Assembly (NCBI GenBank): GCA_030019255.1
Contig: JASEFK010000001.1
Location: 25,012 to 89,011, forward strand
DNA length: 64,000 nt
Direction of reading: 5' to 3'
From: Actinomycetota bacterium
GTDB taxonomy: Bacteria > Actinomycetota > Geothermincolia > Geothermincolales > RBG-13-55-18
The notes beneath the pieces were generated by a model that worked only from the letters and a program-made list of their open reading frames with translations, did not search any database and had not been told where the DNA came from. Each line of letters starts with the position of its first letter. Position 1 is the stretch's first letter. Shown in pieces: positions 15,268 through 56,302 of this stretch. Made by a program: the position numbers and the translations under genes.

Positions 15268-16062
15268 ATGAACATGGTGGTGTGCGTGAAAAGGGTCCCG
15301 GACACCGCGGAGTCCGAGGTCCACATCGATGCCTCCGGGAAGGACATCGAGAAGAGCCGCCTGTCCTTCGGCATCAACGAGTGCGATAACTACGCCGTGG
15401 AGGAGGCCATACAGATCAAGGAGAGGCTCGGGGGCACGGTGACGGTCATCAGCCTGGGGCCCAAGGAGAACGACGAGGTCATCCGCATGGCCCTGGCCAA
15501 GGGTGGCGATGAGGCCATCCGCCTGGAGGACGAGGCCTTCGACGGCAGCGACGGGTTCGCGGTGGCCAAGGCCCTGGCGGCGGCCATCAAGGACCTGGAG
15601 TACGACATCGTCTTTACCGGGGCGCTGGCCGACGATGACGGGTATGGTGTGGTCCCCGCGGCCCTGGGCGAGCTCCTGGGCGTGCCCCACGCCACCTACG
15701 TGAAGAAGGTGGAGATCCTGGAGGACGGCAAGCGGGCCCGGGTGGGCCGCGAGCTGGAGGGAGGCCTCCTGGAGTTCCTGGAGATCGAGCTGCCCTGCGT
15801 GCTGGGCATCCAGACGGGCATCAACGAGCCGCGCTACGCCTCCTTCAAGGGCATCAAGCAAGCGGCCAAGAAAGAGATCACCGTGAAGAGCGCCGCCGAC
15901 CTGGGGCTGGACCCTTCCGAGGTGGGGGAGGCCGGTTCGTGGGCCGTACTGGAGAAGTTCACGCCCCCGGTGGTGGGCGAGATGGCGGAGATACTGGAGG
16001 GCGACCCGGAGGAGACCGCGGCCAAGCTGGCCGCCATCCTAAAGGAGAAGGGGCTGGTGTAA
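15268..16062 (+). CDS. etfB: Electron transfer flavoprotein beta subunit
   Basis: VVCVKRVPDT, INECDNYAVEEA, GINEPRYAS. Confidence 0.95.
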   Translation: MNMVVCVKRVPDTAESEVHIDASGKDIEKSRLSFGINECDNYAVEEAIQIKERLGGTVTVISLGPKENDEVIRMALAKGGDEAIRLEDEAFDGSDGFAVAKALAAAIKDLEYDIVFTGALADDDGYGVVPAALGELLGVPHATYVKKVEILEDGKRARVGRELEGGLLEFLEIELPCVLGIQTGINEPRYASFKGIKQAAKKEITVKSAADLGLDPSEVGEAGSWAVLEKFTPPVVGEMAEILEGDPEETAAKLAAILKEKGLV

Positions 16063-45493: not shown

Positions 45494-46285
45494 ATGGCCA
45501 TCGAGGAGACCACCATAACTGCCCTGATCACCCGCTCCTTCTGCGAGGATTTCCTGGTCGACTTGGAGCTGGACGTGGCCGTCGCCGGAGCGGGGCCGGC
45601 GGGGATAACCGCCGCCCGCTATCTCTCCCGGGCGGGGCTGAGGACGGCCGTCTTCGAGAGGAACCTCTACGTGGGAGGAGGGATGTGGGGAGGCGGAATG
45701 CTCTTTCCCCGCATCGTGGTTCAGGAGGAGGCCGCGCCCATACTGGAGGAAGCGGGAGTTGCGCTTAAGCCCGCGGATTCGGGGCTCTACGTGGCGGACT
45801 CCGTGGAGGCGGTTTCCTGCTGCACCGCCGCCGCCCTGCATGCCGGGGCCCGCATCTGGGTGGGCATGGGGGTGGAGGACCTGGTGCTCCGCGAGGACGA
45901 CCGGGTGTGCGGGGTGGTCCTCAACTGGATGGCCGTGGAGAGAGCCGGGCTGCACGTAGATCCCATGGCCGTGAGGTCTAGGCTGGTCATCGATGCCACC
46001 GGCCACGACGCCGAGGTCTGCCGAACCCTGCTGCGCAAGGTGCCCGGGCTTCGCCTTCCCACGGAATCGGGGGGAGTGATGGGCGAGAGGCCCATGTGGG
46101 CGGCGAAGGGTGAGGAGGCCCTGGTGGGCAACACGCGGGAGGTCCACCCGGGTCTCATCGTGGCCGGGATGACCGCCAACGCCGTCTTTGGTTCCCACCG
46201 CATGGGGGCCGTGTTCGGGGGCATGCTCCTTTCTGGCCGGAGGGCCGCGGAACTGGCCCTCGAACTCCTGGGTTCGAAAGGTTGA
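45494..46285 (+). CDS. thi4: Thi4-type thiazole synthase (His-type, sulfide-dependent)
   Basis: VAGAGPAG, GGGMWGGG, LHVDP, IDATGH, GMTANA, RMGAVFGGMLLSG. Confidence 0.93.
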   Translation: MAIEETTITALITRSFCEDFLVDLELDVAVAGAGPAGITAARYLSRAGLRTAVFERNLYVGGGMWGGGMLFPRIVVQEEAAPILEEAGVALKPADSGLYVADSVEAVSCCTAAALHAGARIWVGMGVEDLVLREDDRVCGVVLNWMAVERAGLHVDPMAVRSRLVIDATGHDAEVCRTLLRKVPGLRLPTESGGVMGERPMWAAKGEEALVGNTREVHPGLIVAGMTANAVFGSHRMGAVFGGMLLSGRRAAELALELLGSKG

Positions 46286-46411
46286 AACACGGGTGGTTCG
46301 CTCTCCACGAAGGCGGGGACGATTACTCGGCCCTCGCGGGAGGGAAGGATGGCAGTCCGGACGGGTACCGCTTACGGCGCACGTGGGATGGTCGGGAGGT
46401 CCTGGTAGAGA

Positions 46412-47074
46412 ATGGCAGCCGGACTGAAGGAAGAAAGAGGGCTCGAACTGGGCCTCTACGTCATAACCGCCGCCGACGCCGGTAGGGGAAGGGATCACAT
46501 CGACGTGGTGCGCGCCGCCCTCGCCGGCGGGGCGGACGCCGTGCAGCTGCGGGACAAGGAAGCGGCGGGTGGCGAGCTCTATCGGCTGGCCCTCGAGGCG
46601 CTGGAGCTGGTAAGGGAGAGCGGCGGAGGCCCGCTCTTCCTGGTCAACGACCGGGTGGACGTGGCCCTGGCGGCGGGAGCCGACGGCGTCCACCTGGGGC
46701 AGGAAGACCTGCCGGCTTCCGTGGCTCGGAACATCCTGGGAGCGGGGGCCGTTCTGGGTGTCTCGGCGGGCTCGGTGGAGGAGGCCCTGGCCGCGGAGAG
46801 GGAGGGAGCCGATTACCTGGGGGTGGGGCCGGTATTTCCCACCCCCAGCAAGCCGGACGCTGGGGAGCCCCTGGGCCTGGAGGGCCTGCGGGCCATACGC
46901 CGGGCGGTGGGCCTTCCCCTGGTAGCCATCGGAGGCATAAACGAGGAGAACCTGGAAGGGGTGTTCGAGGCCGGGGCGGATGGCATCGCGGTCATCTCCG
47001 CCGTGGCCTCCGCCTGGGACATGGAGGAGGCGGTAAGGCGGTTGCGCCGGGCCGTGGACGCTTGCCGCGGATGA
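46412..47074 (+). CDS. thiE: Thiamine-phosphate synthase
   Basis: VQLRDK, VNDRVD, GVHLGQED, GPVFPTPSK, AIGGI. Confidence 0.95.
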   Translation: MAAGLKEERGLELGLYVITAADAGRGRDHIDVVRAALAGGADAVQLRDKEAAGGELYRLALEALELVRESGGGPLFLVNDRVDVALAAGADGVHLGQEDLPASVARNILGAGAVLGVSAGSVEEALAAEREGADYLGVGPVFPTPSKPDAGEPLGLEGLRAIRRAVGLPLVAIGGINEENLEGVFEAGADGIAVISAVASAWDMEEAVRRLRRAVDACRG

Positions 47075-47108
47075 AGGTCCGACCGGTCCGGGAAGATGCC
47101 CTACAGCG

Positions 47109-48455
47109 ATGGACCCCCTCGGGGGGAAGGAGAGTAAGCCGATGGACGAGAAGACCTTGATCGAGGAACTGCGAAGGGGAGATATCCCGCCCGCCCTGGA
47201 GAGGGCGGCCCGCGAGGAGGGGCTGCCCCTGGAGGAGGTGATCCGGGCCGTGACCGGGGGCACGGCGGTATTTCCCTCCAACCGGGCTCGCACGCCGGAA
47301 CGACCCTGCATCATCGGTGGCGGGTCGCGGGTGAAGGTCAACGCCAACCTGGGAACCTCCAGCGATTACGCGGGCCTGGAAGAGGAGCTGGAGAAGCTGC
47401 GCGCCGCGGTGGAGGCGGGGACGGACGCGGTCATGGACCTCTCCACGGGAGGACCCCTGGACCGCGTGCGCGAGGCCATAGTGAACGCCTCCCCGGTCCC
47501 GGTGGGCTCGGTGCCCATCTACCAGGCGGCGGTGCGGGCCCAGGAGGAACGTGGGAGCATAGTGGCCATGACTCCCGAGGACATGTTCCGGGCCGTGGAG
47601 GACCACTGCGCTACGGGGGTAGACTTCATTACCGTCCACTGCGGGGTCACCCAGCGGGTCCTGGAGACCCTGAAGGCTAACCCGCGGGTGGCGGATATCG
47701 TCAGCCGCGGCGGCGCCTTCCTGGCCGGCTGGATGCTCCATCACGAGAAGGAGAATCCCTTGTATGAGCACTTCGACCGCCTGCTGGAGATCGCCCGCCG
47801 CCACGAGGTCACCCTTTCCCTTGGCGACGGGCTGCGGCCGGGGTGCATCGAGGACGCCACCGACGCCGCCCAGGTGGCGGAGCTGGTAGTGCTGGGAGAG
47901 CTGGTGCAGCGTTGCCGGGAGGCGGGGGTGCAGTGCATGGTCGAGGGTCCGGGACACATCCCCCTGCATCAGGTGGAGGCCAACGTGCGGCTGGCCAAGG
48001 CGGTGACCCACGGGGCCCCCTTCTACGTGCTCGGGCCCCTGGTGACCGACGTGGCGGCCGGACACGACCACGTGGCCGCGGCCATCGGGGGTGCCCTGGC
48101 GGCCATGGCGGGCGCCGATTTCCTGTGCTACGTGACGCCCCGCGAGCATCTCGGCCTTCCCACTGCGGAGGATGTCAAAGAAGGGGTCATCGTAACCCGC
48201 ATCGCCGGCCACGCTGCGGACATAGCCCGCGGCGTTCCGGGGGCCAGGGAGTGGGACCTGCGCATGAGCCGGGCCCGCAAGGCGCTGGACTGGGACCAGC
48301 AGCTCGACCTAGCCCTCGACCGGAGCAAGGCCCGGCGCCTCTTCGGGGAGAGGCAGGTGGAAGGGGAGAAAGCCTGCACCATGTGCGGGGACTTCTGCGC
48401 CATGCGCTTCATCTCCCAGTTCCTGGGAAAGGAGGAGGTCCCGGTCTGCGAGTGA
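47109..48455 (+). CDS. thiC: Phosphomethylpyrimidine synthase
   Basis: KVNANLGTS, MDLSTGG, SRGG, SLGDGLRPG, EGPGH, CYVTPREHLGLP, CTMCGDFCA. Confidence 0.96.
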   Translation: MDPLGGKESKPMDEKTLIEELRRGDIPPALERAAREEGLPLEEVIRAVTGGTAVFPSNRARTPERPCIIGGGSRVKVNANLGTSSDYAGLEEELEKLRAAVEAGTDAVMDLSTGGPLDRVREAIVNASPVPVGSVPIYQAAVRAQEERGSIVAMTPEDMFRAVEDHCATGVDFITVHCGVTQRVLETLKANPRVADIVSRGGAFLAGWMLHHEKENPLYEHFDRLLEIARRHEVTLSLGDGLRPGCIEDATDAAQVAELVVLGELVQRCREAGVQCMVEGPGHIPLHQVEANVRLAKAVTHGAPFYVLGPLVTDVAAGHDHVAAAIGGALAAMAGADFLCYVTPREHLGLPTAEDVKEGVIVTRIAGHAADIARGVPGAREWDLRMSRARKALDWDQQLDLALDRSKARRLFGERQVEGEKACTMCGDFCAMRFISQFLGKEEVPVCE

Positions 48456-48762
48456 GCGCCGCGGGAGCGGAGATGGAAGGTGTTTCCAGGCGCCTTTTTC
48501 GGGGCGGGCGCATGAGGTGCGGTGACCGGGAGCGGTATTCGGTTCGAGCAAGAGGGGCGGAAAGGATTGCCGGTCGCCGGTAACCGTGGGCGAACCGGGT
48601 GCAGGAACCGGGAGCGAGGAATCCGGCCGGGATTTCTTGGGAGATGGGGCAGGTAAGGTCGGCCGGTATCCGCGCGCCAGTGAAGGAACTAAGACCTGCC
48701 GGAGACCTTTCGGGGACTCGCAAGTTCCCTGGCATGCGGCGTTATATCAAAGGTGGTGGAAA

Positions 48763-49743
48763 ATGAAGGTCTCGGAGAGCGGCGAGTTCGGCCTGATCGA
48801 CGCCCTGCGCCGCTTGCTGGAAGGAGCGGAGGGGGACCTGGTCTGCGGGGCGGGCGACGACGCCGCGGTATTCCGGGACAGCGCCGGCCGCCTGTGGGCC
48901 TATACCGCCGATGCCCTGGTGGAGGGGGTCCATTTCATGCCCGCCTATACCCCCTGGTATTCCCTGGGCTTCAAGGCCCTGGCCGTCAACCTCTCCGACC
49001 TGGCCGCCATGGGGGGAGGCGGACCCTCCTATGCCCTGGTGGTCCTGGGTTTGCGGGGTGAGGAGGAGGTCTCCCGGATGGAGGAGATGTACCGGGGGCT
49101 TTCGGACTGCGCCCGTCGTTTTTCCTGCCGGGTGGCGGGCGGGGACGTGGTGCATTCCCCGGAGAGGACTTTCCTGTCCGTTTCCCTGGTGGGAACCCTG
49201 GAGGGGGAAGGTTTTTTGGCCCGGAGCGGGGCACGCCCGGGACAGGCGGTGCTGATCACCGGGACCCTGGGAGATTCCTGGCTGGGACTGCAGTTGCTGA
49301 TGCGGGGGGGAGGGACGGATGACCCCTGCGCCCGGCGCCACCTCTATCCCGAGCCGCGCCTCGAGGAGGGGCTGGCGGCGTTCCGCCTGGGGGCCACGGC
49401 GGCCATCGACGTGAGCGACGGCCTCCTGCGTGACGCGGGGCACATCTGCGAGGAGAGCGGGGTGGGGATGGAGATATATATGGAAAGTATTCCCATCTCG
49501 GAGGACGCCCGCCGGCTGGCCGTGGAGCTGGGGATGGATCCCCTGCGGGCCGCCCTGGCCGGCGGGGAGGATTACGAGCTGGTCATCACGGTGGACGAGC
49601 GGCTGGCGCCGCTTTTAGCGGAGAAGCTCCCGGCCACGATCATCGGCCGGGTGACGGAGGGGGAAGGGGTGGTGCTGGTGGACGCGGAAGGCAGGCCTTT
49701 TGCAGCGCCGGAGACGGGCTATGAACATTTCCGGGAGGCATGA
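48763..49743 (+). CDS. thiL: Thiamine-phosphate kinase
   Basis: GEFGLI, GDDAA, EGVHF, NLSDLAAMG, DVSDGL, GGEDYEL. Confidence 0.95.
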   Translation: MKVSESGEFGLIDALRRLLEGAEGDLVCGAGDDAAVFRDSAGRLWAYTADALVEGVHFMPAYTPWYSLGFKALAVNLSDLAAMGGGGPSYALVVLGLRGEEEVSRMEEMYRGLSDCARRFSCRVAGGDVVHSPERTFLSVSLVGTLEGEGFLARSGARPGQAVLITGTLGDSWLGLQLLMRGGGTDDPCARRHLYPEPRLEEGLAAFRLGATAAIDVSDGLLRDAGHICEESGVGMEIYMESIPISEDARRLAVELGMDPLRAALAGGEDYELVITVDERLAPLLAEKLPATIIGRVTEGEGVVLVDAEGRPFAAPETGYEHFREA

Positions 49744-49762
49744 GGTGGCCGGACGGGGCGGG

Positions 49763-50620
49763 ATGGGAGAAGGGCGCGGGTCGATCCGGCCGGTGGCGCT
49801 GACCATCGCCGGCTCCGATTCCGGCGGGGGAGCGGGTATCCAGGCCGACCTAAAGACCTTCTTCGCCCTGGGCGTGCACGGCACCTGCGCTCTGACCAGC
49901 GTCACCTCCCAGAACACCTCAGGGGTGATCTCCCGTTTCGACCTCCCGGCGGAGGTGGTGGTCTCCCAGGTGGAGGCGGTGGCCTCCGACCTGGAGCCGG
50001 CGGCGGTGAAGACCGGGATGCTGGCCACCGCGGAGGTGGTCCGCGCGGTGGCCGGATTGGCGGAGAGTCTGGGATGGGAAAAACTGGTAGTCGACCCCGT
50101 GGTGATCTCATCCAGCGGCCACCCCCTGCTGGAGGATTCCGGTATAGGGGTTCTGCTCGAGAAGCTACTTCCGCGGTCCCTGGTCTTCACGCCCAACCTG
50201 GCGGAGGCTTCCCTTCTCACCGGCATTGATGTCGTGGGTCCCGGGGAGATGAGGAAAGCGGCCCGCATCCTGCATTCCCGCGGAGCCCGCACGGTGGTGG
50301 TTAAGGGAGGCCACCTGGGAGGGAACGAGGCGCTGGACGTCTTCTTCAATGGAAAGGATTACCATGAACTCAGGACTACAAGGGTGAACACCGCGGATGA
50401 CCATGGGACGGGTTGCGTCTTTTCGGCGGCCGTCGCCGCATACCTGGCCCTGGGCAGGGAACCCCTGGAGGCGGTACGCGGGGCCAAGGATTTCGTCACC
50501 CGCGCCCTTGCCCGTTCGCTCCGCCTGGGGAGGGGGAGGGGACCGGTAAACCCGGCCTGCGCGGCAGACACGGCCAACGGCGCATGGGTAAAGGATCGGG
50601 AGAGAAAGGAGGGGAGATGA
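49763..50620 (+). CDS. thiD: HMP/HMP-P kinase
   Basis: LTIAGSDSGGGAGIQADLKT, KTGML, VDPV, TPN..EA, KGGH, HGTGC. Confidence 0.95.
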   Translation: MGEGRGSIRPVALTIAGSDSGGGAGIQADLKTFFALGVHGTCALTSVTSQNTSGVISRFDLPAEVVVSQVEAVASDLEPAAVKTGMLATAEVVRAVAGLAESLGWEKLVVDPVVISSSGHPLLEDSGIGVLLEKLLPRSLVFTPNLAEASLLTGIDVVGPGEMRKAARILHSRGARTVVVKGGHLGGNEALDVFFNGKDYHELRTTRVNTADDHGTGCVFSAAVAAYLALGREPLEAVRGAKDFVTRALARSLRLGRGRGPVNPACAADTANGAWVKDRERKEGR

Positions 50621-51174
50621 GGATAGGCCTGGTCAGCGACACTCACGGCGATCCTGTCGCCTGGAGGAAAGCCATGGAACATCTGGGAGACTGCGAGCTC
50701 ATCCTCCACGCGGGGGACCACCTGTATCACGGGGCCTTCAACCCCGTCCTCCCCGAGTACGACCCCAGGGAGATGGCCAGGGAGTTTAACGAGTGTCCCG
50801 TCCCCATCCTGCACGCCCGCGGGAACTGCGATTCGGAGGTAGACCAAGCGGCCCTCCGCGACCCCATCCTCTCCCCTTACGTCGTCTGCCGGCTGGAGGG
50901 GATAAAGGTGATGCTCACCCACGGGGATGCCATGGGGGAGGAGGAGCTGGCGGAGATGGCCTCCAGGTACGGCATGGACCTCCTGGTGCGCGGGCACACC
51001 CACGTGCCCGGGATATGGGAACACGGCCCGCTCCTGGTGTGCAACCCGGGAAGCCCCTCTCTGCCCAAGGGGGAGGGCATACCCACGGTGGGGGTGCTGG
51101 AGGACGGGAAGGTCCATATACTGAACTTGCGGGACGGGACCGTGCTGGTGGAGAAGGGGTTCCCCGGGAAGTAA
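50617..51174 (+). CDS. YfcE/MJ0936-type metallophosphoesterase
   Basis: SDTHG, HAGD, RGNCD, THG, GHTH, NPGS. Confidence 0.9.
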   Translation: MRIGLVSDTHGDPVAWRKAMEHLGDCELILHAGDHLYHGAFNPVLPEYDPREMAREFNECPVPILHARGNCDSEVDQAALRDPILSPYVVCRLEGIKVMLTHGDAMGEEELAEMASRYGMDLLVRGHTHVPGIWEHGPLLVCNPGSPSLPKGEGIPTVGVLEDGKVHILNLRDGTVLVEKGFPGK

Positions 51175-51189
51175 GGCGGGGTTACCCAA

Positions 51190-51250
51190 GGGGGCCGGGG
51201 TTAATGGTCTCGCTCGCTGAAACGTTCGCTGCGACCAACCACCGGCCCCT
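51190..51250 (+). repeat. Hairpin repeat family, copy B
   Basis: AGGGGCCGG...CCGGCCCCT stem; core TGGTCTCGCTCGCTGAAACGTTCGCTGCGACCA. Confidence 0.85.
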
Positions 51251-51327
51251 GATGGGTGGGCCATCTTGTGATTGGTTGGCCATAGATCCATTCTTCCGAA
51301 AGGCCGGTAGGGTGCTTTTCCGGAAAG

Positions 51328-51384
51328 CCGGTGGTAGTGGTCTCGCTCGCTGAAACGCTCGCTGCGGTCGACCACGCCGCCCGG
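51328..51384 (+). repeat. Hairpin repeat family, copy C
   Basis: Core TGGTCTCGCTCGCTGAAACGCTCGCTGCG at 51338-51366, CCGG ends. Confidence 0.75.
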
Positions 51385-51498
51385 TCGTAGTCTTCAACCC
51401 TCCTTACCTGCCGGGACGGAAATGCTTGTCCGGGGTGGTTTGTGGCAGAATTGGAGATACGATTGGCGGGTCAGCGAAACGGCCTAGGGTGGTGCGAG

Positions 51499-52473
51499 AT
51501 GGACCTGAACGTTGATGCGGCTGCCTTGAGGGAGTTCGAGGAAGGGCTGGACCCGAGGCGGCCGGAGGCGGGTCGGATACCGGCCCGCATACCGGGATAC
51601 GGGGAGATAAGCACTGTCTTCGAGATCCAGGCGGAGGGGCTGAAGGGGCTGGCCGTAAAGCGCATGCCCATCTTCAGGGACCGGGAGGAGATAGACTCCT
51701 ACCGCCGGATCTACCTGGAATACAACCGCCTCCTTAAAGAGGAGGTGGGGTTGGAGCTGCCGGCTTACGGGTAAGCGGAGGTGATCACCTCCGGCGGCCG
51801 CCCCGTATTTTATATCCTCCAGGAGAAGGTTCCCCCGGAGTCCATAGGCAACCAGGCCATCCATGCGCTGGACCGGGAGGGGGTGATCGGACTGGTGCGC
51901 CTGGTTCTGCGGGAGCTGCGCAAGGTATGGGACTTCAACCGGAAGCGGGAGGGCCTGGAGGTGGCCGTGGACGGCCAGATATCCAACTGGTCCCTCGTGG
52001 GGTTCGACCCCTGGGATCCGCGCCTGGAGCCCGGCATGCGCCTGCTCTACCTGGATACCAGCACGCCGCTTTTCCGGGTGGAGGGGGTGGAGCAGCTGGA
52101 CCCCGAGCTCTTCCTGCGCAGCGCCCCCTCCTTCCTGGTGTGGATAATCCGCCTCCTCTTCCTGGAGGACGTCATGACCCGCTATTAACGTTTCCGTTCC
52201 GTGACCATCGATCTCATCGCCAATTTCTACAAGGAACAGCGGGCGGAGCTCATCCCCGACCTGGTGGAGGAGGCCAACCGGTTCTTCGCCGAGGAGACCC
52301 CCGACCTGGGGGTCGAACCCATAAGCGTGAAGGAGGTGGATTCCTATTACCGGGAGGACGCCCTGATCTGGTCCCTCTACCTGAACCTCAGGCGGCTGGA
52401 CCGTTTCCTGCGCACCCGCTTGCTGAGGCGGGATTATCCCTAAATACTCCCGGAGAGGATAAAGAGGAAATAG
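51499..52473 (+). pseudogene. Kinase-like (DUF6206-like) reading frame interrupted by three in-frame TAA codons
   Basis: ORF-track pieces 51442, 51781 and 52201 share one frame; TAA at 51772-51774, 52186-52188, 52441-52443; terminal TAG at 52471; motifs GYGEISTVF, AVKRMP, YILQE, DGQISNW, YLDTSTP. Confidence 0.8.
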
Positions 52474-52675
52474 CGCGAAATCTTCGGCACTGCGGCCGGC
52501 TTTTCATTAAGGCGAGTGCTATTCCGGTCGACGGTGAAAAAAGGGGAGGTCGGGGAGGGGACCGGCGGAAACGATCGATAGTGCGACAAGCAAGTACCCT
52601 AGGCGGCGGAGGCGAACATCCATGGCGGCGGAAGTACACGCAACCGCAGCCGGGAAAGGAGGGAGGTGAGGCTCA

Positions 52676-53939
52676 ATGTCCCTGGTCGGCCGGGACGAGA
52701 AGGAGAAAATAATCGAGAGGTTCGCCCGCCACGTATCCAGCGGCAAGGCCAGGTTCTTCCGGAAGGCGGGCATTGATTTTATCTTCGAGCGCCGCGAGGG
52801 TATCTACATCTGGGACCTGGAAGGCAACCGGTTGATAAACTGCCACTGCAAAGGGGGTCTTCAACCTGGGTCACCGTCATCCCCGCATCGTGGCCGTCCT
52901 CCGTGAGGCCTTGGAGGAGCTGGACATCGGCAATCACCACCTCATCTCCGAGCACCGCGCTCTCCTGGCCGAGCGGCTGGCGGAGCTCTCGCCGGGGGAC
53001 CTCAACCGGGTGGTATTCGGCGTGGGGGGAGGGGAGGCGGTGGACACGGCCATCAAACTGGCCCGGGCGCATACCGGCAGGCCGGGCGTCATCTCCGCCC
53101 GGGGAGGGTATCACGGGCACACCGGGTTCGCCCTGGCTGCGGGGGATCCCAAGTACAGCGACCCCTTTCGGCCCTTGCCTCCTGGATTCCGGCAGGTGCC
53201 TTTCGGTGCTCTCGCTGCCCTGGAGGAGGCCATGGACGAGACCGTGGCCGGGGTTATCTTCGAGACCATCCCCGCCACCCTGGGGATAGTCATCCCTCCC
53301 GAGGACTATTTCGCCGGGGTGAGGGAAATCTGCGACCGGTACGGTGCGGTGATGATCATAGACGAGGTCCAGGCGGGCCTGGGTCGCTGCGGGGAGGTGT
53401 GGGGTATCGATACCTTCGGGGTGGCCCCGGACATACTGGTCACGGCCAAGGGCCTCTCCGGGGGCGTCTACCCCATCGCCGCCAACGTCTACGCCGACCG
53501 CCTGAATCCCTTCCTGGACGCCAACCCCTTCATACACGTCTCCACCTTCGGGGGGTCCGAGGTGGGCTGCCACGTGGCCCTTGAGGTGCTGAAGATAGTC
53601 ACCGAGGAGGGGTTCCTGGAGCATGTGCGGGAGCTGGCCGCGGTTTTCGAAAGGGGATTCGGAGAACTGCGCGCCGCGCACCCGGAGGTGCTGGTGGAGA
53701 CCAGGCAGAGGGGCCTGATGATGGGCCTGAGGATGGTGAACGAAACCTGCGGCCCGCTGATGACCCTGGCCGGGTTCCGGCACGGCGTGCTCACCATCTA
53801 CGCCAACAACGACCCCTCGGTGAGCCAGATACTGCCGCCCCTGGTCATGGAGGTGGGAGAGGCGGAGACGGTCATCGAGGCCCTGGACGGCATGCTCTCC
53901 GAGGTGGAAAAGGTGGTCGGCGCCTCCTCAGGAGGATAA
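52676..53939 (+). pseudogene. Class III PLP aminotransferase with a frameshift near 52850-52858
   Basis: Frame A ...WDLEGNRLINCHC; frame B continues VFNLGHRHP...GGGEAVDTA, GGYHG, IFETIP, IIDEVQAGLGR, VTAKGLSGG; break at AAA-GGGGG. Confidence 0.85.
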
Positions 53940-53993
53940 AGGCAACCCCCTGAGGTAATCGGGGTGTGGAGCGAAGAAAACGGTCGGCGGCTC

Positions 53994-54182
53994 TCAGTGA
54001 CGGGTGACCTTGCCCGCCTTCATGCACTTGGTGCACACGTTCATGTGCGCGGGCTTACCGTCCACCACCACGCGTATCCTCTGGACGTTGGGGTTCCAGC
54101 GGCGCTTGGTCTTGCGGTGGGAATGGCTTATGTTGAACCCGAACCCGGGCCGTTTACCGCATATCTCGCATACTCTGGACAT
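53994..54182 (-). CDS. rpmB: 50S ribosomal protein L28 (Zn-binding form)
   Basis: MSRVCEICGK...SHSHRKTKRRWNPNVQ...VCTKC. Confidence 0.97.
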   Translation of the reverse strand: MSRVCEICGKRPGFGFNISHSHRKTKRRWNPNVQRIRVVVDGKPAHMNVCTKCMKAGKVTRH

Positions 54183-54282
54183 GTCAACCTCCTCCGAACA
54201 TTCGGGTGTATGTTACCAGAAGTGTTTTCTGCGGGCAACCCGAACGCCTTCCCGAGGCGCCTGGTTGCCGGTCATAGCCGGT

Positions 54283-54291
54283 TGCTATAAT
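54283..54291 (+). promoter_or_regulatory. Extended -10 promoter for the asp23-DAK2-recG genes
   Basis: TGcTATAAT. Confidence 0.6.
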
Positions 54292-54326
54292 CATACCGTT
54301 CCGGCCGGGAAGCATGGAGGAAGAGG

Positions 54327-54683
54327 TTGAGGGAAGAGACTGCAGCCGGAGAGCTGGGAAAGATTACCATCAAGGACGAGGTCTTGGCCGACCTCGCCGG
54401 CCTCACCTGCACGCGCTGCTATGGCATCGTGGGGATGGCCAGCCAGAGCTTCCACGAGGGAGTGGCCGAACTCCTGGGAAAGGAGTCCCTACGCAAGGGA
54501 GTGCGCCTCAAGCGCCGGGAGGACGCCGTGAGCTTCGACCTTTACGTGATAGTCAAGGCGGGCCTGAACATCGTGGAGGTGGCCCACAACCTCATCGAGC
54601 AGGTGAGGTACGTGGTGGAGACCTGCACCGGGCTGAAGGTGGAGGACGTTCAGGTCCACGTGCAGGGCGTGCGCGAGTCCTGA
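54327..54683 (+). CDS. Asp23/Gls24 family protein (YloU-like)
   Basis: GKITIKDEVLADLAG...CYGIVGM, DLYVIV, VHVQGV; conserved position before the DAK2 gene. Confidence 0.9.
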   Translation: MREETAAGELGKITIKDEVLADLAGLTCTRCYGIVGMASQSFHEGVAELLGKESLRKGVRLKRREDAVSFDLYVIVKAGLNIVEVAHNLIEQVRYVVETCTGLKVEDVQVHVQGVRES

Positions 54684-54700
54684 GCTCGGGGGTGTGAAGC

Positions 54701-56302
54701 TTGGTGGAGAGGTTGCACGCCGGGGACCTCGTGGGCATGGTGGACGCCGCCATCGATGCCCTGCGGGTGCACAAGGAAGAGATAAACGCCATGAACGTCT
54801 TCCCCGTTCCCGACGGGGACACGGGCACCAACATGCTCCTCACCATGCAGGCGGTGAAGGAGGCCGTGGGTGGAGCCGACCACCAGGATATGGCCTCCAT
54901 ATGCCGGGCCATCTCCAGGGGTTCCCTCATGGGGGCGCGGGGCAACTCCGGGGTGGTGCTCTCCCAGATCCTCAAGGGGATGACCGAGGTCATGGAGGAC
55001 AAGGAGAGCCTGGACGTGGAGACCATGGCCGAGGCCCTTTCCCGCGGCGCCGAGGTGGCCTACCGCGCGGTCATGAAGCCCGTTGAGGGCACCATCCTCA
55101 CCGTGGTGAAGGCGGCCTCCGACGAGGGGAAGAGGATCAAGGACGGCTGTTCCTCGCTCGAGGAATGGCTTTCCGGCGTAACCCGCAAGGCCAAGGAGGC
55201 CCTGGACCAGACCCCGGAGCTACTCCCGGTCCTCAAGGAGGCGGGAGTTGTGGACGCCGGAGGGCGAGGGCTTCTGGCCATCTTCGAGGGTTTCCTGGCC
55301 TTCCTCACCGGGGAGGAACTGGGGGAGATCGAGGAGGTGGAGCAGGCCGGCCTTCCCTCCGGGGCGCGGGTGGAGGATTTTCGCTACGAGGCCCAGTTCA
55401 TCCTGCACTGCAAGGATTCCAGGGTGGAGAAGTTCCGCGAAACCCTGCACCGCCTGGGCGGATCGGTGCTGGTGGTGGGAGGAGATAAGCTCTACCGGGT
55501 GCACGTGCACACCGACCAGCTGGGAAGGGTCATCGAGGAGGCCTCCAGGGTGGGCCGCCTGAGCGACGTGGAGATAACCGACCTGCGCGAACAGGTGGAG
55601 GAAACCGGGATACGCGGGGCGGCTTCGGAGAGGCGGACGGCCGCCGTGGAGAAGCAGGTGGGCGTGGTGGCGGTGGCGGTGGGAGAGGGCATCAAGGACG
55701 TCCTGCGTTCCATGGGAGTGGACCGCATCGTGGACGGCGGGCAGTCCATGAACCCCAGCACCGCCGAGCTGCTGGAGGCCGTGGACGCCCTTCCCCAGGA
55801 CCGCGTGCTCCTCATCCCCAACAACCGGAACATCATACCTGCCGCGGAGCAGACCAGGTCCCTGACCGCCAAGGAGGTGGCGGTCATCCCGGCCACGGCC
55901 ATAACCGAAGGTTTCGCGGCCATGGTGGCTTTCGATCCCCGCGCCGGGTGGGAGGAGAACCGGAGGCGCATGACCGAGGCCCTGAAGAGCGTCCGGACAG
56001 GAGCGCTGACCACCGCGGTACGCGACAGCAGGTGCGGCCTGGGGAAGATCAAGAAGGGCAACTATATCGGGCTCTTCCGAGGGGAGATAGTCTCCAAGTC
56101 GGAGGATCTGAAGGAAGCGGCCCTGCTTCTCCTGCGGAAGATGACTGAGGAGGGCGGGGAGATAGCCACCGTCATCGTCGGCGAGGGGGCCGCGGGCAGG
56201 GACCAGGGGGATATCGTCCGCTTCCTGGAGGACAAGGGCCTGGAGGTGGAGGTCATCGACGGGGGGCAGCCCGTCTACCATTACATCTTCGGGCTGGAGT
56301 GA
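54701..56302 (+). CDS. fakA: DAK2-domain fatty acid kinase subunit A (YloV/FakA)
   Basis: INAMNVFPVPDGDTGTNM, GARGNSG, PVEGTILTV, VVDAGG, VHVHT, GGQSMNPST, GGQPVYHY. Confidence 0.92.
   Translation: MVERLHAGDLVGMVDAAIDALRVHKEEINAMNVFPVPDGDTGTNMLLTMQAVKEAVGGADHQDMASICRAISRGSLMGARGNSGVVLSQILKGMTEVMEDKESLDVETMAEALSRGAEVAYRAVMKPVEGTILTVVKAASDEGKRIKDGCSSLEEWLSGVTRKAKEALDQTPELLPVLKEAGVVDAGGRGLLAIFEGFLAFLTGEELGEIEEVEQAGLPSGARVEDFRYEAQFILHCKDSRVEKFRETLHRLGGSVLVVGGDKLYRVHVHTDQLGRVIEEASRVGRLSDVEITDLREQVEETGIRGAASERRTAAVEKQVGVVAVAVGEGIKDVLRSMGVDRIVDGGQSMNPSTAELLEAVDALPQDRVLLIPNNRNIIPAAEQTRSLTAKEVAVIPATAITEGFAAMVAFDPRAGWEENRRRMTEALKSVRTGALTTAVRDSRCGLGKIKKGNYIGLFRGEIVSKSEDLKEAALLLLRKMTEEGGEIATVIVGEGAAGRDQGDIVRFLEDKGLEVEVIDGGQPVYHYIFGLE

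Follow-up and report, generated by a model that had tools for sequence, protein, structure and literature searches.

Three in-frame TAA codons at former tyrosine positions of a kinase-like gene: a probable young pseudogene module in a 'Candidatus Solincola' lineage of hot springs

When the reading frame of a bacterial gene is interrupted by three stop codons, all of them TAA and all at positions that look like tyrosine, the question arises whether the gene is dead, whether TAA is read as an amino acid, whether the sequence is in error, or whether an unusual mutational process has acted on the locus. Such a frame was present in a stretch of 64,000 nucleotides, here called the window, which corresponded to C11:25012-89011 of the source assembly. 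The frame belonged to the Pfam family DUF6206, and it was the only copy of this gene in the genome (2.93 Mb, 63.5% GC, 43 contigs). Its features were the following.

51499..52473, + strand: DUF6206 (PF19709) protein-kinase-like gene, very probably a pseudogene; frame of 324 codons interrupted by three TAA
51772..51774, + strand: internal TAA no. 1, codon 92; Tyr (TAC) in the sister species
52186..52188, + strand: internal TAA no. 2, codon 230; TAC in every orthologue of the DNA alignment
52441..52443, + strand: internal TAA no. 3, codon 315; a Tyr codon (TAT or TAC) in homologues
52471..52473, + strand: ancestral stop TAG of the DUF6206 gene; same position in orthologues

The original prediction described three in-frame TAA codons within one frame of 324 codons and no frameshift, and this description was confirmed. 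The frame had no indel relative to its orthologues, and the closest intact homologues were likewise 324 codons long. The third TAA was internal and not the true stop of the gene since the orthologues in the protein alignment all ran past it (...YPYILPGKIKRK and then the stop) and ended at the same place. The codon that followed the second TAA was also altered, from GAC to CGT. The match to the DUF6206 profile scored 61.9 bits (cut-off 30.4) and covered profile positions 34-271 of 271. The window copy matched the family model and kept its motifs but was truncated by the stops.

The gene had been called kinase-like, and this label was borne out at the level of the fold. Namely, an AlphaFold2 model of the closest intact DUF6206 homologue (pLDDT 89.5, pTM 0.88) had 97 Foldseek matches in the PDB with E <= 1e-3, at TM-scores of only 0.30-0.45, and the best 50 of these 97 were all protein or sugar kinases (AAK1, BIKE, GAK, WaaP, PknG, and others). 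The residues G33-x-G35, K54, D158, N163, and D186 were invariant in the family alignment and fit a kinase active site. The window frame kept the Gly-rich loop GxGEISTV, Lys54, D158-x4-N163, and D186. The model and the alignment support the term kinase-like as a fold assignment for the family, with catalysis being a prediction. A sequence search of DUF6206 against the PDB found no related solved structure, and a literature search found no paper mentioning the family. Upstream of the gene, much of the 325-nt spacer was filled by a 49-nt direct repeat (51194-51242 and 51327-51375) with copies that were 86% identical and 133 nt apart. A search of window positions 46000-56000 against Rfam gave no match.

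As the original prediction had proposed, homologues were aligned to identify the ancestral residue, and Tyr was found at each stop site. The prediction had claimed Tyr ancestry for at least the first and the third sites, and it turned out to hold for all three. The three sites read TAC, TAC, and TAT in 'Ca. Solincola tengchongensis', the sister species (84% identity at the DNA level), and CAC, TAC, and TAY in more distant genera. A search of 5.8 billion database proteins gave no intact relative above 85% identity. The nearest intact homologues in it were 324-341 residues long and 81-85% identical, and the five closest all had Tyr at each of the three sites. In a broader set of 41 homologues, codon 92 was Tyr in 18 and His in 17, while codons 230 and 315 were Tyr in 39 and 40, respectively.

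The gene was present in 31 of the 41 related genomes searched (the source genome and 30 relatives) and absent from the other ten. It was full-length and free of stops in 29 of the 30 relatives; the remaining one, G019, had a fragment with a TAG. None of the full-length orthologues in the genomes of these relatives was interrupted at these three positions, and the best 120 database homologues were all full-length predicted proteins. Programmed stop-codon read-through was rejected because the stops were not conserved in the orthologues. The DUF6206 fragments of G019, a genome from a related genus of the same family, were located at C25:42403-42758, and they looked like the product of an independent decay.

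The gene directly downstream was also broken, and its features were as follows.

52676..53939, + strand: class-III (omega) aminotransferase, the next gene after DUF6206, split into frames of 76 aa and 349 aa
52850..52857, + strand: frameshift in the partner aminotransferase, AAAGGGGG(TC) against AACGGGGGGG(TC) in the sister species; in the wider context of 52850-52859, AAAGGGGGTC against AACGGGGGGGTC in the sister species

In comparison to the sister species, the frameshift site showed a C-to-A change and a G7 run that was shortened by two G. The encoded protein was nearest the putrescine and acetylornithine aminotransferase models and scored below every equivalog cut-off. Its lineage-specific non-synonymous and synonymous changes numbered 26 and 23, compared to 6 and 21 in the sister lineage, and its terminal branch in the protein tree was 0.08, against 0.031 for the sister. 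These values point to relaxed constraint on the partner aminotransferase in the window lineage. The original prediction had overlooked the frameshift and the relaxation of this gene as well as the other broken genes of the genome.

The association of the two genes was widespread. In 61 of 71 loci, the two genes were immediate neighbours on one strand, with the aminotransferase gene on either side of DUF6206. The loci belonged to Actinomycetota, Chloroflexota, Desulfobacterota, Spirochaetota, Bacillota, and Asgard archaea (Lokiarchaeum ossiferum, with 43% identity). With the two genes adjacent on one strand in so many loci, their joint loss would be expected. Judging from gene content, namely the ten of 41 genomes that lacked DUF6206 and the remnant in G019, the module is probably dispensable in this clade. 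The joint loss of a dispensable two-gene module would then be the natural reading of the two broken genes.

The sequence itself could be wrong, as the original prediction had considered. According to this explanation, the organism truly has TAC or TAT at the three sites, and the stops were introduced by sequencing, polishing, or consensus error. C-to-A is a familiar oxidative library artefact. However, when public assemblies were searched for exact matches to the ORF fragments, the 135-aa middle fragment of the DUF6206 gene was present on ten contigs. The characteristic split into 91/110, 135, and 80 aa, together with the 76 and 349 aa split of the neighbour, recurred in no fewer than five further assemblies or datasets: two other NCBI assemblies (GCA_054165685.1 and GCA_030024025.1), at least two Logan SRA runs (SRR29054607 and SRR16588181), and the JGI metagenome 3300045074. 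Within the DUF6206 gene, all other copies were 100% identical to the window. GCA_054165685.1, SRR29054607, SRR16588181, and JGI 3300045074 were 100% identical at the DNA level over 1.7-6.4 kb and contained all four lesions; what looked like a gap in the JGI contig was a run of N. GCA_030024025.1 also had the lesions, and its sole difference over 3.9 kb was located at 54403-54411 in an Asp23-like gene, an in-frame indel of 9 bp that identified it as a separate strain or assembly. Since the sequence recurred in these datasets, a consensus or platform error was very unlikely. Moreover, the errors would have had to fall on Tyr codons three times within a single gene and spare everything else, and the 26 lineage-specific non-synonymous changes of the neighbour would be left without explanation. 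At least one of the datasets with the lesions was obtained on the Illumina platform: GCA_054165685.1 (JBRBPE) is a PE150 metagenome-assembled genome from the Tuwa hot spring, described as 'Candidatus Solincola uaceae' (PMC12917137). The artefact option was thereby effectively refuted, and we regard it as hardly credible.

A scan of the genome for other TAA-broken genes, also proposed in the original prediction, revealed one such gene. It was a CapA/PGA_cap-like gene (C4:67035-67709, - strand) with a TAA at 67598 that replaced a Tyr conserved in all relatives (EAY). This gene was plainly dead since about 75 residues of its catalytic domain were gone, the loss lying between two short similar motifs (MAE[KN]G..Y). 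Additionally, several genes were broken by other stop codons.

TrkH-like gene: TAG at a Gln position
FAD-linked oxidase: TAG at a Trp position
Crotonase: in-frame TAG
'YFAEG' repeat-domain protein: adjacent TGA-TAG pair at Glu-Trp
CAP-domain gene: two in-frame TGA
Multiply degraded gene on C33
Sites of these broken genes: C22:272443 and 272908 (-); C22:87371 (-); C40:203099 (-); C11:20018-20023 (+); C33:267223 and 267325 (+); C33:110177-110269 (-)

The ancestral residues in these genes were judged from paralogues, and beyond the Gln of the TrkH-like gene and the Trp of the FAD-linked oxidase they were varied or uncertain. Judging by these frames, the source genome has a noticeable pseudogene load. 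TAA accounted for four of about 13 recognisable nonsense events genome-wide, which was near expectation.

In-frame TGA codons were also observed at Cys-type positions (C43:33677, C43:100997, C5:47214, C38:267065, and C14:7611). Three of their contexts were formate-dehydrogenase-like (HCARL-U-H), one was ferredoxin-thioredoxin-reductase-like (GQCY-U-ALY), and one was a CxxCxxC ferredoxin motif (CHG-U-GQC). Since the TGA codons were at Cys-type positions and the genome had a tRNA-Sec, these genes probably encode selenoproteins; the TGA of the CHG-U-GQC motif could alternatively be a TGC-to-TGA nonsense change.

The next possibility was that TAA has a different meaning in this organism. Two genome-wide coding-potential scans and a paralogue tblastn scan revealed internal TAA only in the DUF6206 and CapA-like genes, giving four such codons in two genes of the 2.9-Mb genome. 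Most candidates from the coding-potential scans were adjacent genes in the same frame or selenocysteine TGA codons, and the tblastn scan was noisy at gene ends, where only sites that were well aligned on both sides were kept. The TAA at C42:68465 was ruled out as an internal stop, being a normal gene end. Aragorn predicted 49 tRNAs, with one tRNA-Tyr (GTA) and one tRNA-Sec, and none of the 49 had a UUA anticodon or was a suppressor cognate to UAA. It also called a tRNA-Ile with the anticodon AAT, which is unusual for bacteria. TAA terminated 258 of 1857 confident ORFs (14%), compared to 265 for TAG and 1334 for TGA, and the etfB/etfA genes at window position 16060 were an example of its ordinary use. 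A genome-wide reassignment of TAA to Tyr was rejected because there was no UUA-anticodon tRNA, TAA was a common terminator, and internal TAA was limited to two genes; the original prediction had likewise excluded genome-wide recoding. The likeness to the stop-codon reassignments of some bacteria and phages consisted of in-frame stops at conserved sense positions. In contrast to those systems, here each of the two genes with internal TAA was damaged itself or had a damaged partner, and the cognate tRNA was absent.

A local form of decoding would not need a dedicated tRNA. In this explanation, the ordinary tRNA-Tyr misreads UAA, a third-position near-cognate, at a useful rate, and the exact wild-type protein is remade from a gene that is still in use. 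Ochre suppression (by the E. coli supC/supM-type tRNA-Tyr with the UUA anticodon) or near-cognate read-through by tRNA-Tyr would restore the ancestral residue at all three sites. Changes from Tyr to TAA would then be the only nonsense changes that selection tolerates in the DUF6206 gene, and this would account for three stops without an indel, extra missense changes, or loss of motifs. Such stops would be 'leaky' alleles of almost no effect or would serve as a crude means of strongly reducing expression. The explanation is consistent with the position of all three stops at Tyr codons, two of them near-invariant, with a gene that showed neither an indel nor amino-acid acceleration and kept its kinase motifs, and with the fixation of the three-stop allele in all sampled populations. 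However, the genome had no suppressor tRNA gene and used TAA as the regular terminator of 258 ORFs, so that there was no sign of suppression as known from E. coli. The obligate neighbour, the aminotransferase gene, was frameshifted and relaxed, and the sole other internal TAA at a Tyr position was in a gene that had also lost about 75 residues. The lack of a stop at the three sites in any orthologue also stands against it. Furthermore, from what is generally known of bacterial termination, three successive read-throughs would multiply to a negligible yield of the full-length protein. Thus, we consider read-through by tRNA-Tyr to be highly improbable.

The original prediction had called three TAA codons unexpected. 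We calculated the one-step routes to a stop codon with the sister orthologue as a proxy of the ancestor under uniform, transition-biased, and GC-to-AT-biased models. In the DUF6206 gene, 19-28% of the routes led to TAA, 59-64% to TAG, and 9-21% to TGA. Tyr codons were the starting point of 72% of the routes to TAA (P(Tyr|TAA) = 0.72). Tyr was the main source of TAA because GAA, CAA, AAA, TCA, and TTA were rare at 85% third-position GC. Under the neutral models, the probability that three of three nonsense changes produced TAA was 0.007-0.02, and the probability that all three were from Tyr to TAA was 0.003-0.008. Therefore, the claim stood in part: TAG was the commonest route and three of three TAA were mildly improbable, but the location of TAA at Tyr was what the codon composition would predict. 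The outcome was unusual for one gene and not extreme across very many windows. In a GC-rich genome, an internal TAA is almost automatically a former Tyr codon, and its location at Tyr is therefore no evidence of recoding. The locus may serve as a useful calibration case in this respect.

The prediction had also suggested a local C-to-A process. In this case, the gene would be a pseudogene as well, and the TAA-only pattern would come from a strand-asymmetric process at the locus rather than from chance. Oxidation of G on the transcribed strand is an example of a process that can give almost only Tyr-to-TAA stops. If only G:C-to-T:A changes occurred, then the probability of three TAA would increase to 0.10, and with coding-strand C-to-A changes alone it would be 0.82. 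In both genes together, the lineage-specific changes on the coding strand included 13 from C to A against 4 from G to T (p = 0.049), with a polarisation that was noisy at about 12-16% divergence. The frameshift site of the aminotransferase had a C-to-A change too. However, the share of G:C-to-T:A changes was not raised relative to the sister lineage (17/94 against 11/77, p = 0.54), which showed the same direction, 7 to 4. The third stop may be a T-to-A change since the sister species has TAT at this site, and the other broken genes of the genome have TAG or TGA that came by other routes. Thus, an excess of C-to-A over G-to-T was seen in the counts, but an elevated G:C-to-T:A share was not, and we think that a C-to-A process at the locus is an unlikely source of the pattern. 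Inspection by eye of the four Tyr-to-TAA sites in the genome showed no common sequence context such as a methylation site. The direction of change led us to reject two other origins of the stops: diversity-generating retroelements, which mutate template A, and deaminases or editing, which give C-to-T changes.

A residual oddity of the DUF6206 gene was that it showed no other sign of decay. A random single-base change in this gene would make a stop in only 3.1% of cases, and for that reason three stops would normally be accompanied by dozens of other changes. The terminal branch of the gene was 0.091, the shortest of its six-member clade (0.10-0.21 in the others), and apart from the stops its lineage-specific non-synonymous to synonymous changes were 16:26, against 23:21 in the sister lineage. 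Thus, when relaxed constraint was measured in both genes of the module, the aminotransferase was accelerated, whereas the DUF6206 gene was not. With only about 10 neutral non-synonymous changes, the probability of at least three stops was about 0.006-0.02, and with all of the roughly 32 being neutral, it was 0.14-0.30. We regard the excess of stops as mild, and it could be covered by chance over many windows or by a weak strand-biased C-to-A process.

With these results, it is very likely that the DUF6206 gene is a real, fixed, and young pseudogene in the hot-spring 'Candidatus Solincola' lineage and that the two-gene module has been inactivated. Plain gene decay is the natural reading because the partner gene is frameshifted and relaxed and other genes are broken in the same genome. 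In the proposed course of events, three third-position transversions in Tyr codons (TAC or TAT to TAA) would have interrupted the kinase-like gene, and the aminotransferase would have lost 2 nt in a G-run and then evolved under relaxed constraint. Translation of the kinase-like gene would end at codon 92 and give a 91-residue N-lobe fragment that is presumably without function. The TAA-only pattern would mostly be due to codon composition, with Tyr TAC as the main one-step source of TAA, and to chance, and a modest coding-strand bias toward C-to-A may have added to it.

The locus resembles the young nonsense and frameshift pseudogenes of bacteria (the 'internal stop' and 'frameshifted' classes of PGAP) in that its stops are at sense codons of the orthologues, the neighbour has a homopolymer frameshift, other genes have decayed, and the alleles are fixed. 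In comparison to the usual young pseudogenes, the three stops here are of one kind, Tyr to TAA, and the gene has no indel or excess of missense changes. We take the locus for a young pseudogene module, and not for an artefact or a new way of decoding.

For annotation, this means a DUF6206 pseudogene and a frameshifted aminotransferase pseudogene in genomes of the 'Ca. Solincola uaceae' type, in place of the five small ORFs that gene callers report. The dead locus itself has little significance beyond this. The more interesting by-product is the pairing of the very conserved DUF6206 kinase-like gene with a class-III aminotransferase across bacterial phyla and Asgard archaea. Pairs of a kinase and a class-III-aminotransferase-like phospho-lyase act in amino-alcohol breakdown. 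By analogy with these pairs, the DUF6206/aminotransferase module may have a similar role in amino-alcohol breakdown, which is a testable idea.
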